Virus record (IMG/VR): IMGVR_UViG_2537562172_000009
Location: 1-32,147 of that record
Length of the DNA stretch: 32,147 nucleotides
DNA from: a virus
Lineage: Duplodnaviria; Heunggongvirae; Uroviricota; Caudoviricetes
Reading direction: 5' to 3' (one strand)
Made by a program: the position numbers and the translations under genes. The notes under the pieces were generated by a model. The model saw only the letters and a list, made by a program, of their open reading frames with translations, was not told where the DNA came from and searched no databases. The number at the start of each line of letters is the position of its first letter. Position 1 is the first letter of the stretch. Shown here piece after piece: positions 1 to 2,591 of the stretch.

Positions 1-23
1 AACACCAGCAAACAGATAAAAAA

Positions 24-45
24 GGGCCAGCCAATTGGCCAGCCC
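24..45. terminator. GC-rich dyad-symmetry hairpin, possible terminator downstream of int (read on the minus strand)
   Basis: GGGCCAGCC-AATT-GGCCAGCCC, an imperfect palindrome around a perfect GCCAATTGGC core; A-run immediately upstream on the + strand, which is a T-run after the hairpin on the - strand. About 125 nt beyond the int stop. Confidence 0.35.
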
Positions 46-171
46 TTCTTAACAGGATGTCGCTTAAGCGAAATCTTAGTTAAGACGCTCCTATTAACAC
101 CCCGCAACAAACAAACGCTTACCATATAAAACAATTAGTTAAAGTAATTTTTAATGCAATGAATTGCAGTG

Positions 172-1221
172 TTATGCAACCTCTGCCGCCATATTGTCGC
201 CAACATACAGCGATAACGGATTAAGGGTTACAGCTTGTTCAAGGTGGTCAGGAGCAAAGTGTGCATACTTCATTGTTTCTCGAATATTGGCATGCCCGAG
301 AATTTTCTGCAGTACCAGTATATTCCCGCCGTTCATCATAAAATGCGCACCAAAAGTATGACGCAAAACGTGCGTCTTCTGCCCTTCCGTCAATTCAATA
401 TTCGTTAGTTTGAGCATCTTCTTAAACTCCTGATAGCAGGGTTTAAACATTCTGCCTTGACGTACGGACAACTCGTCGTACAGCCATTTAGGAATAGGAA
501 CTGTGCGATTCTTCTTACCTTTGGTTTTGGTGAACGTCAGTTTATATGGAGAAAGTTGAGGGCGGGTCAATCTCTCCGCTTCCCCCCATCGAGCGCCGGT
601 TGCAAGGCACACCTTAACAATCATGGTGAGGTCTTCTTTGCCGTATTGCTCGCAGGCTCGAAACAGCTCCGGGAGCTGAGACAAAGTTAGCCAGGACATT
701 TCTTTCTCAGCCTCTTTGAATACTCGGATCCCATCAAGTGGATTGGGTAGGCTCCACTCCCCTAACCGGCGGAGCTCATTAAACACTGCTTCTAGGTATT
801 GTTGTTCGCGATTGACGGTTATAGGTTTGGCGATCCATTTCGAGGGGTCTTTATGATAACCGTTGTCTATTTCACCACGTAATCGACGGTCACGATAATG
901 AGCCCAGTCTTTCGCGGTAAGGCGAGATGCAATCGGGTCACCAAGCCCATTACATACGATTTGAAGCTTTGCTAACCTCGACTTACTGGCGACTAACGCT
1001 TGACCGTGCAAATTGTGCCAAAGCTGAATAATCTCGCTTAAGCGTCGGCGGTCTTCTTTCTTGCCAAGCCACGGCTTATCTTCACTCTCGCTTTTGGTAA
1101 ATGCTTCGAATGCCTCGGCCTCACCTTTGGTATTGAATTGCCGACGTATACGCCGCCCTTCTCGACCATTTGGATAGAGCTCGCATAACCATTTGCCATT
1201 TTTTTGCTTACTTACAGTCAT
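172..1221 (-). CDS. int: tyrosine-type site-specific integrase (P2/186 family)
   Basis: 349-aa ORF; ATG at 1219-1221 (minus); C-terminal catalytic region with R...HxxR...Y-type motifs (VLRHTFGAHF, KYAHF); sits at the prophage end downstream of the repressor, as in P2/186. Confidence 0.93.
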   Translation of the reverse strand: MTVSKQKNGKWLCELYPNGREGRRIRRQFNTKGEAEAFEAFTKSESEDKPWLGKKEDRRRLSEIIQLWHNLHGQALVASKSRLAKLQIVCNGLGDPIASRLTAKDWAHYRDRRLRGEIDNGYHKDPSKWIAKPITVNREQQYLEAVFNELRRLGEWSLPNPLDGIRVFKEAEKEMSWLTLSQLPELFRACEQYGKEDLTMIVKVCLATGARWGEAERLTRPQLSPYKLTFTKTKGKKNRTVPIPKWLYDELSVRQGRMFKPCYQEFKKMLKLTNIELTEGQKTHVLRHTFGAHFMMNGGNILVLQKILGHANIRETMKYAHFAPDHLEQAVTLNPLSLYVGDNMAAEVA

Positions 1222-1243
1222 AATGTCACCGAGGCAACTCTAA

Positions 1244-1582
1244 TTATTCGCAAAGTGCTGTTGCGGCATCCATTACAGGATCCAAAGGAATTTTTACACC
1301 TGCATACTCTGGACTGTCTTTCCAAACAGCATCAATATTGCTCCCCTCAAGCTTTCCAGACTTTACTCCATCAATAGCAAAACCATTTAATGGGTATCGG
1401 TCATCAGTTGCTTTGTCGTATACAAAGGCATACTTACCGTTAACGCAAGACACCGTAGCTTTTTCAAAAGTTAACGGCCAATCCTCACCAAACTTAGCGC
1501 CATCTAAATCCTGTGTTTTTTCAGCGGCTAAGGAGCCAAAAGAAAAGGTAAGAAGCATAGCTAAAAAGAGTTTACGTTTCAT
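1244..1582 (-). CDS. small secreted (periplasmic) protein of unknown function, moron inside the repressor-int operon
   Basis: ORF trimmed to the internal ATG (1580-1582) preceded by AAGGGA; the resulting 112-aa protein starts MKRKLFLAMLLTFSFGSLA-AEK, a classical Sec signal peptide with an A-x-A-like cleavage site and no lipobox Cys. Confidence 0.7.
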   Translation of the reverse strand: MKRKLFLAMLLTFSFGSLAAEKTQDLDGAKFGEDWPLTFEKATVSCVNGKYAFVYDKATDDRYPLNGFAIDGVKSGKLEGSNIDAVWKDSPEYAGVKIPLDPVMDAATALCE

Positions 1583-1590
1583 AATTTCCC

Positions 1591-2451
1591 TTATACGTGT
1601 TTTTCCAATGTGAAAACTACAACCCCGGCAGGCGTAATGTCGGTAATGTTGCATTCAAACTCAGCAGACTTATTTGACAACCTGACTTTTCCACCAGGTA
1701 AACGAATTACATCAAAAACATCAAGAGCGCCGTCGATATCAATTAACCAGCGACCATTACTTATATTCGAAGCAGAACAGTCGACAAGCCAAGAGGCAGC
1801 TACACCGTCAACAAAAATCAATTCCCCTGAGTTAGAAGGAATCATTGAGGGGTCAGGATGCCACGTTCCTGCATCCTTAAGCTCACCAGATTCAAGACGA
1901 GATTTTTTAATAGAAAAACCAGATGTGACATCTTCCCTGTTAGCTCGCATTTGCCCCTTGCCTGTTGCTAACCATTCCAGTGACGTATCGGTATCAAGAG
2001 CGCATGTAACAACAACATCACCAGGGAAAAAATCTCGCCTTACCCATGTGCTAATTGTGCCAGAGGAAATGCCGAGCAAATCACCGAGCTCCTTTTGCAT
2101 GGTAAAGCCATACGCATCAAGAATCCTACGCAAAACGGTTTTACCACCATTCGTCATAATCTCGTCATAAAGCTCTTTGCCTTTTAACTTGCAACTGGCT
2201 CGCTCGTGATTTGCATTTGCAAGCTCTCCATTTACAAGCCAATTGATATCAGCTCCCGTGTCAAGACAACACCTAACTATGACATTGCCAGGTATTGCAT
2301 CACGCTGAACCCAGCCGCTAACGCTGTGTTTAGCGATACCTAGCAGGTCAGCCAAATCCTTTTGCATCTTGACCCCATAGGCTGACATTAAGCGTTCCAA
2401 TACGCCGTTCGTTGCACTAACACGCCACTGAACATCAAGCTCAGAACTCAT
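1591..2451 (-). CDS. immunity repressor, 186 CI-like, with tandemly duplicated N-terminal HTH domain
   Basis: 286 aa. Two homologous about 65-aa segments (LERLMSAYGVKMQKDLADLLGIAKHSVSGWVQRDAIPGNVIVRCCLDTGADINWLVNGE and LRRILDAYGFTMQKELGDLLGISSGTISTWVRRDFFPGDVVVTCALDTDTSLEWLATGK) resembling the phage 186 CI-type HTH domain, followed by an about 115-aa C-terminal domain. Divergent from the Cox/Apl-like gene and upstream of int. Confidence 0.8.
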   Translation of the reverse strand: MSSELDVQWRVSATNGVLERLMSAYGVKMQKDLADLLGIAKHSVSGWVQRDAIPGNVIVRCCLDTGADINWLVNGELANANHERASCKLKGKELYDEIMTNGGKTVLRRILDAYGFTMQKELGDLLGISSGTISTWVRRDFFPGDVVVTCALDTDTSLEWLATGKGQMRANREDVTSGFSIKKSRLESGELKDAGTWHPDPSMIPSNSGELIFVDGVAASWLVDCSASNISNGRWLIDIDGALDVFDVIRLPGGKVRLSNKSAEFECNITDITPAGVVVFTLEKHV

Positions 2452-2480: not shown

Positions 2481-2509
2481 TTTACAGAAAACTTTTTACG
2501 ATCTATAGT
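2481..2509 (+). promoter_or_regulatory. candidate early lytic promoter (Pe/pR equivalent)
   Basis: TTTACA, 17-nt spacer, TATAGT on the + strand, about 60 nt upstream of the Cox/Apl-like start and inside the repressor/cox intergenic region. Confidence 0.6.
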
Positions 2510-2562: not shown

Positions 2563-2591
2563 ATAATGCGATATGTCAGATGCAAAATCAA
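2563..2591 (-). promoter_or_regulatory. candidate lysogenic promoter (Pc/pL equivalent), face-to-face with the early promoter
   Basis: On the minus strand TTGATT, 17-nt spacer, CATTAT; predicted leftward start about 40 nt right of the predicted rightward start, giving convergent overlapping transcripts as described for the P2 and 186 switches. Confidence 0.35.

Follow-up and report, generated by a model that had tools for sequence, protein, structure and literature searches.

The stretch of DNA considered here, termed the window throughout, comprises 32,147 nucleotides (positions 1 to 32,147 of the IMG/VR virus record IMGVR_UViG_2537562172_000009) and is a PSP3-like, 186-type Peduoviridae prophage of Escherichia coli, in which a small gene for a protein of the DUF2511/YebY family is lodged between the immunity repressor gene cI and the integrase gene int. 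With a probability of about 0.9, the product of this gene, the middle one of a cI-orf-int lysogenic operon, is a phage-borne paralogue of the E. coli protein YebY that the Sec pathway exports to the periplasm and a disulfide bond between its C46 and C111 stabilises. The gene is PSP3 orf28/gp28 and has been catalogued before; it is an annotated member of a known family, and its context has already been described in the literature. At present the gene ranks as an ordinary annotated accessory gene that would not surprise a specialist. It is positioned for constitutive expression in lysogens of a prophage type common in E. coli, Salmonella, Klebsiella, Enterobacter and Citrobacter, and the only characterised Gram-negative member of DUF2511 has recently been linked with the uptake of copper and with resistance to multiple drugs.

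Leader, family and fold of the window protein

A sequence-only reading of the window had singled out an open reading frame (ORF) at 1244-1582, between the repressor and int genes, and had credited its 112-aa product with a Sec signal peptide. Both statements were borne out: translation places the ORF on the minus strand with its ATG at 1582 (Table 1), and the product, which begins MKRKLFLAMLLTFSFGSLA, displays the architecture of a leader processed by signal peptidase I (SPase I). The assignment is rule-based, relying on the n-h-c architecture and the -3/-1 rule. The n-region is charged +3 (K2, R3 and K4), the h-region is a 14-residue hydrophobic core (mean Kyte-Doolittle value 2.0 over 15 residues), and the predicted cleavage between A19 and A20, in the site S-L-A/A, satisfies the -3/-1 rule. 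By the same rule-based analysis, a lipobox, a twin-arginine motif and any second hydrophobic segment are absent from the window protein. Export of the protein is predicted from this leader architecture.

The leader recurs in all 48 distinct alleles found in related loci, always with 19 residues, with A or S at position -1 and A, S, V, T or I at position -3, and neither a lipobox nor a twin-arginine motif occurs in any of these alleles. Strict conservation across the alleles begins at A20-E21, and the leader codons evolve faster than the mature codons (pN/pS, the ratio of nonsynonymous to synonymous differences, 0.63 vs 0.32). The leader is more than a chance feature: the 48 alleles keep it, the frame is under purifying selection, and only 3 of the 141 window ORFs of at least 60 aa pass a crude leader rule. 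A longer ORF of 136 aa, which starts at 1654 inside cI, was rejected, since 1582 is the start that fits the leader, the Shine-Dalgarno sequence and every homologue.

The homology and structure search that had been suggested for the protein led to the DUF2511/YebY family, with YebY and MlbQ as structural matches. The Pfam family DUF2511/YebY (PF10709) is matched with 63.7 bits against a gathering cut-off of 21 (E 2.1e-17), residues 29-111 of the protein being aligned to profile positions 5-87 of 87. The PHROG match is to family 2950, which is labelled 'unknown function', and NCBIfam gave no match for the window protein. Among solved structures, E. coli YebY (7N0J) is the only sequence match (E 3.7e-7), and a search with the AlphaFold2 model of the window protein returned YebY (7N0J) and MlbQ as the only structural matches, so that the protein has the YebY/MlbQ fold by this measure. 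YebY has been demonstrated by experiment to be periplasmic (by fractionation), monomeric and disulfide-bonded (PMC8689200). In the alignment to 7N0J, C46 and C111 of the window protein coincide with the disulfide cysteines C48 and C113 of YebY, both are retained in 46 of the 48 alleles, and a C46-C111 disulfide is predicted from this correspondence.

One allele, P0001, has lost one of the two conserved disulfide cysteines through a C111W replacement (L022 1874-2209, L023 4001-4336). In YebY, replacement of either cysteine abolished expression, and the C111W allele is probably inactivated, though it is present on several contigs.

YebY, which is encoded by the third gene of the copper-uptake operon yobA-yebZ-yebY (AZY), and the window protein have in common the Pfam family, the size, a Sec leader, the cysteine pair and the predicted fold, as well as W35 and a YPLN motif. 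The copD (yebZ) and copC (yobA) neighbours that would mark a YebY orthologue are missing, since the window gene and its counterparts in 66 of 66 related loci have cI and int as neighbours. The phage alleles are monophyletic and stand apart from E. coli YebY, to which the window protein shows about 30-32% identity. The low identity, the lysogeny-operon context and the separate clade identify the window protein as a paralogue rather than an orthologue of YebY.

MlbQ (2MVO/6QFP), by which Microbispora resists its own lantibiotic NAI-107, exhibits the same DUF2511 fold, the same disulfide position and the same extracytoplasmic action. Its proposed resistance mechanism is direct binding of the lantibiotic NAI-107 (PMC8689200), and the structural match could be taken to mean that the window protein is likewise a periplasmic immunity protein, which neutralises a peptide antibiotic, a bacteriocin or a host antimicrobial peptide and gives the lysogen a competitive gain. 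MlbQ, however, is a lipoprotein with a long linker from a Gram-positive lantibiotic cluster, whereas the window protein is predicted to be soluble in the periplasm and is encoded in a phage operon, with neither a lipobox cysteine nor a lantibiotic/ABC-transporter immunity cluster. Such a role is regarded as improbable.

Gene order, expression and constraint

The order cI-DUF2511-int on one strand, the conservation of which had been proposed as a check, is found in 66 of 66 related loci (64 from IMG/VR and two genome loci, collected by a protein-profile search). The gap between cI and the DUF2511 gene amounts to 8-11 nt in all of them, and that between the DUF2511 gene and int is mostly 22-24 nt.

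It can be inferred strongly that the window gene would be co-expressed with cI in lysogens, on the basis of several lines of evidence. The two genes are separated by 8 nt, and a Shine-Dalgarno-like AAGGGA at 1592-1587 overlaps the cI stop. Neither a promoter-like site (at least 9 of 12 matches) nor a terminator-like hairpin was found on the minus strand from the start of cI to the start of int (2451-1200); the gene accordingly lacks the promoter and terminator of its own that characterise a moron and is embedded in the cI-int operon. Upstream of cI lies a candidate pL, whose offsets from the cox/apl-like ATG (2573) equal those of the annotated 186 pL from the apl ATG. The records of 186 and K139 are annotated with lysogenic operons extending from cI to int inclusive. 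Moreover, RNA-seq of BTP5 detected transcription of cI and int, at comparable levels, under every condition (PMC7067206); BTP5 is without the DUF2511 gene, and its RNA-seq bears indirectly on the window gene. The earlier suggestion of expression together with the repressor is well supported by the operon layout and the relatives, and keeps the status of a prediction.

The protein sequence is constrained, which indicates that the gene is real and functional. The median ratio of nonsynonymous to synonymous substitution rates (dN/dS) across alleles is 0.15 for the DUF2511 gene, 0.03 for int and 0.11 for cII, and the corresponding pN/pS values of recently diverged pairs are 0.18, 0.05 and 0.07. 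The dN of the DUF2511 gene is about 8 times that of int, so that it is under looser constraint than its neighbours, and 27 residues are invariant. These values bear on the proposal that the gene has no trans-acting function, being either a hitch-hiking remnant or an element of cis-only importance, for example a spacer or a translational coupler by which integrase expression is set. The tight packing between cI and int would suit such a role, as would the overlap of the cI stop with the int start in 186, by which the content of the slot affects the translational coupling of int, and the loss of a conserved cysteine in the C111W allele. Purifying selection on the protein sequence (dN/dS 0.15-0.18), the 27 invariant residues, the leader architecture kept in 48 alleles, and the retention of the gene beside various types of repressor, in some cases with no integrase adjoining, argue against it and make it very improbable.

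Far beyond the PSP3-type clade, the DUF2511 gene keeps company with P2-like genes. A word-indexed protein search reached relatives of at least 62% identity only, and the wider family was obtained from an exhaustive profile search, which yielded 787 cluster representatives at E <=1e-3. A single representative reaches 1e-30, which marks the PSP3-type clade as compact. Of the other representatives, the 11 nearest, with about 33-60% identity, are all located in P2-like phage DNA: the gene follows a single-HTH (helix-turn-helix) CI in P0020 and P0024, a dual-HTH CI in P0021 and P0022, a short HTH repressor in P0023 and P0028, and a BRCT gene in P0027, and its neighbours in P0025, P0030 and P0036 are GpD/GpU/tape-measure or Ogr genes, or a CI-like HTH gene close by. 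This distribution implies that DUF2511 is a recurrent gene of P2-like lysogeny modules rather than a one-off capture.

Table 1. Coordinates of the DUF2511/YebY-family gene and of other features in the window
Feature	Position	Strand	Basis or remark
DUF2511/YebY-family gene, equivalent of PSP3 orf28/gp28	1244..1582	-	112 codons + stop; ATG 1582-1580, stop 1246-1244
Predicted Sec-type (SPase I) signal peptide, codons 1-19, MKRKLFLAMLLTFSFGSLA	1526..1582	-	n-h-c analysis, -3/-1 rule
Mature domain, residues 20-112, ~10 kDa, pI 4.4, C46 + C111	1247..1525	-	alignment to 7N0J
cI stop (1593-1591) and 8-nt spacer to the ORF ATG, TAAGGGAAATT-ATG	1583..1593	-	
22-nt spacer from ORF stop to int start, Shine-Dalgarno-like GGTGA	1222..1243	-	
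CI-type immunity repressor, 286 aa; first operon gene	1591..2451	-	Pfam; called cI in PSP3, SEN1, Midge
Tyrosine integrase, 349 aa; last operon gene	172..1221	-	Pfam Int_N + Phage_integrase
Candidate pL (lysogenic) promoter	2563..2591	-	-35 TTGATT 2591-2586, -10 CATTAT 2568-2563; relaxed consensus scan
Candidate pR facing pL (early lytic promoter), TTTACA-17-TATAGT	2481..2509	+	promoter scan, 10/12 matches
Bidirectional terminator (strong hairpin) downstream of int, probably host-side (yfiB terminator)	19..50	-	terminator scan

Candidate functions

Superinfection exclusion is tentatively ranked first among the functions of the window protein, at less than even odds, followed by damping of copper import through the inner-membrane importer YebZ, and then by MlbQ-like immunity and a purely cis-acting role. 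The lysogenic-conversion or exclusion factor suggested in the sequence-only reading is thus a plausible label. In the proposed mechanism, the middle gene of the cI-orf-int operon would be expressed without interruption in lysogens, with the pL-type promoter as its source, and from pE while lysogeny is established. The exported protein may bind and block an envelope or periplasmic component, a mode of action that is expected because both characterised relatives, YebY and MlbQ, act by binding outside the cytoplasm. The most likely outcome would be superinfection exclusion, by which the DNA entry of incoming P2-family phages is hindered. Exclusion is placed first on account of the linkage of the gene to the repressor across divergent P2-like phages and repressor families, a prophage remnant that has kept the gene together with cI, and the presence of Glo in the corresponding slot of K139.

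The Glo protein of the Vibrio phage K139 (Peduoviridae), reported to take part in phage exclusion according to the GenBank annotation and a secondary paper, is encoded in the order cI-orf2-glo-int with PL, and is, like the window protein, small and leader-bearing; it is periplasmic, as is predicted for the window protein. The rexAB genes of lambda and bstA of BTP1 are likewise co-transcribed with the repressor in lysogens and occupy a mosaic accessory site (PMC7067206). Their products differ in that they act in the cytoplasm or the inner membrane and are unrelated in sequence, the window protein being a predicted periplasmic protein with the YebY fold.

Several points weigh against this reading of the gene. 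The expression of the window gene in lysogens is extrapolated from relatives, and the confidence of the AlphaFold2 model is moderate, with a predicted local distance difference test score (pLDDT) of 71. Homology to Glo was considered and rejected, as hhalign gave a probability of 4%, the leader was the only part aligned and the Pfam results differ, so that the likeness is a functional analogy of position and compartment. PADLOC returned no match for the window protein, a result that is uninformative, since PADLOC is without a Glo model and misses Glo too. A signature of an arms race was sought, and at a dN/dS of 0.15-0.18, with repeated change only at E92, K57 and D101, pervasive positive selection is unsupported. 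Finally, the sole functional data for the close structural relative YebY concern copper import and not phages (PMC11923076). The allele types of DUF2511 are partly linked to the CI immunity types and partly reassorted, which is uninformative on function.

The copper data give rise to a different proposal, namely lysogenic conversion in which the phage protein mimics YebY and damps copper import by YebZ and YobA, with altered cytoplasmic copper, copper-dependent derepression of MarR and antibiotic tolerance, or the protection of lysogens from copper overload, as consequences. It is the only one with an experimental precedent in Gram-negative bacteria, and family, fold, disulfide and compartment are common to YebY and the window protein. 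Co-expression of YebY and YebZ lowers copper accumulation, the AZY operon ties copper to mar-mediated resistance, and the named hosts of the members are Enterobacterales, several of which have been reported with AZY-like operons (PMC11923076). In addition, the remnant mentioned above, found in Winslowiella toletana, lies about 3.5 kb from the host copD-yebY. Against these observations stand the identity of only about 30-32% to E. coli YebY and the formation of a clade of their own by the phage alleles. Moreover, a yebY copy is already present in the host, and deleting the AZY genes one at a time had no effect on a copper reporter (PMC11923076). The mature protein contains no His and one Met, and an obvious copper site is therefore lacking. 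The gene is also conserved beside the repressors of P2-like phages that have diverged widely, which points to a phage-centred role. A published YebY-YebZ interface, on which conservation could have been tested, was not found, the published model being that of YebZ-YobA only. On balance, the modulation of YebZ is judged to be unlikely.

Superinfection exclusion, as the preferred function, can be extended to a broader and somewhat doubtful proposal: DUF2511 proteins may constitute a widespread, unrecognised family of periplasmic superinfection-exclusion proteins that block DNA entry and are encoded in the lysogeny modules of P2-like phages across Proteobacteria, the chromosomal, copper-linked YebY being a domesticated offshoot of their binding scaffold, or they may alternatively serve in the tuning of copper import and mar resistance by prophages. 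Should the phage copy exclude other phages, a phage-centred role would be added to the known one of DUF2511, and P2-like phages would be credited with a general module for exclusion; should it modulate YebZ, these prophages would alter the copper handling and the antibiotic tolerance of clinical isolates.

Known copies, slot contents and flanking features

The window protein is 97% identical to PSP3 gp28 (NP_958085, UniProt Q6K1G1) and 100% identical to the copy in vB_EcoM-613R3. Seven isolated phages carry the gene (PSP3, SEN1, Midge, RCIP0057, SI22, SW9 and vB_EcoM-613R3), in all of which it lies, as in the window, between cI and int and shows no substantive difference from the window gene. 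In RefSeq its product bears the label 'DUF2511 domain-containing protein', in the Midge record 'putative periplasmic protein', and in that of 613R3 'hypothetical protein'. The exact window protein occurs on at least 1000 deposited contigs as a MULTISPECIES Enterobacteriaceae protein, and the cI-DUF2511-int module is present in 66 of 5426 complete E. coli genomes, always single, chromosomal and flanked by CI and integrase genes. The named hosts of the members are Enterobacterales, comprising E. coli, Salmonella, Klebsiella, Citrobacter and Enterobacter. The genomic context of the window gene had already been noted in the YebY paper of 2021 (PMC8689200). The sequence-only reading had recognised neither the homology to DUF2511/YebY, nor the identity with the annotated PSP3 orf28, nor this published context.

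As expected of a moron, the gene is present in some phages and absent from other close ones. It is missing from the repressor-integrase slot of 186, P2 and BTP5, and the 186-type Yersinia phages match the window only from cII onward, with no tblastn match to the gene. The statement in the sequence-only reading that int directly follows the repressor in P2 and 186 proved correct: the cI stop overlaps the int start in 186, and a gene-free gap of 115 bp separates gene C from int in P2. The repressor also abuts the integrase in BTP5, a 186-type Salmonella prophage.

A 'DUF2511 domain-containing protein' listed in a proteomics paper, QGA31985, was rejected as evidence for the prophage protein, because it probably represents the YebY of the host: its accession and that of YoaE are 23 apart, which is the K-12 spacing of chromosomal yebY to yoaE.

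Further cargo was observed in the same slot of related loci. A second signal-peptide ORF of 134 aa, which begins MKRSIFALVLLTSFAVHAQP, is situated between cI and the DUF2511 gene in L006 (3570-3974 (+)) and in L032, and has no convincing Pfam match and no PADLOC match. Between the DUF2511 gene and int, a bPH_3 + SHOCT protein of 166-168 aa is encoded in L046 (4355-4861 (+)) and also in L045, L047 and L048, and a bPH_3 + SHOCT protein likewise fills this gap in L073/L074 (4475-4975); PADLOC returned no match for this cargo protein. The latter two loci (L073/L074 1-5000, Winslowiella toletana, CP134152) represent the decayed prophage remnant near copD-yebY, which keeps cI-DUF2511-bPH/SHOCT, with an integrase fragment directly after yebY and no tRNA gene. 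The identical protein recurs in 27 of the collection's blocks (24 contigs were read), from which the remnant appears to be maintained. On the short contig L077 (195-1142), a WYL+BRCT gene directly upstream of the DUF2511 gene mirrors the orf2 (BRCT)-glo arrangement of K139, and K139 orf2 matches the PADLOC candidate model PDC-S48 (E 3e-8).

By Pfam, the CI of the window combines a tandem pair of Phage_CI_repr HTH domains with a CI C-terminal domain, and with 286 aa and two HTH domains it differs from the 186 CI, which has 192 aa and one HTH. The repressors upstream of the DUF2511 gene in related loci are dual-HTH, single-HTH or short HTH proteins. On the plus strand, a 123-aa ORF (2573-2944) in the cox/apl position has no Pfam match, and its 98%-identical counterpart in Midge has been annotated as Cox on the basis of HHpred only. 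A scan of the whole window against Rfam gave no match.

In its lysogeny region, the window is 99.9% identical to vB_EcoM-613R3, 90% to SEN1 and 86% to PSP3. The prophage adjoins yfiB in the 613R3 record, and positions 1-73 of the window appear to be host DNA, the window starting directly after the yfiB stop according to ON470592. Homology to free phages starts at 55-74, which would place the left attachment site (attL) at about 51-74.
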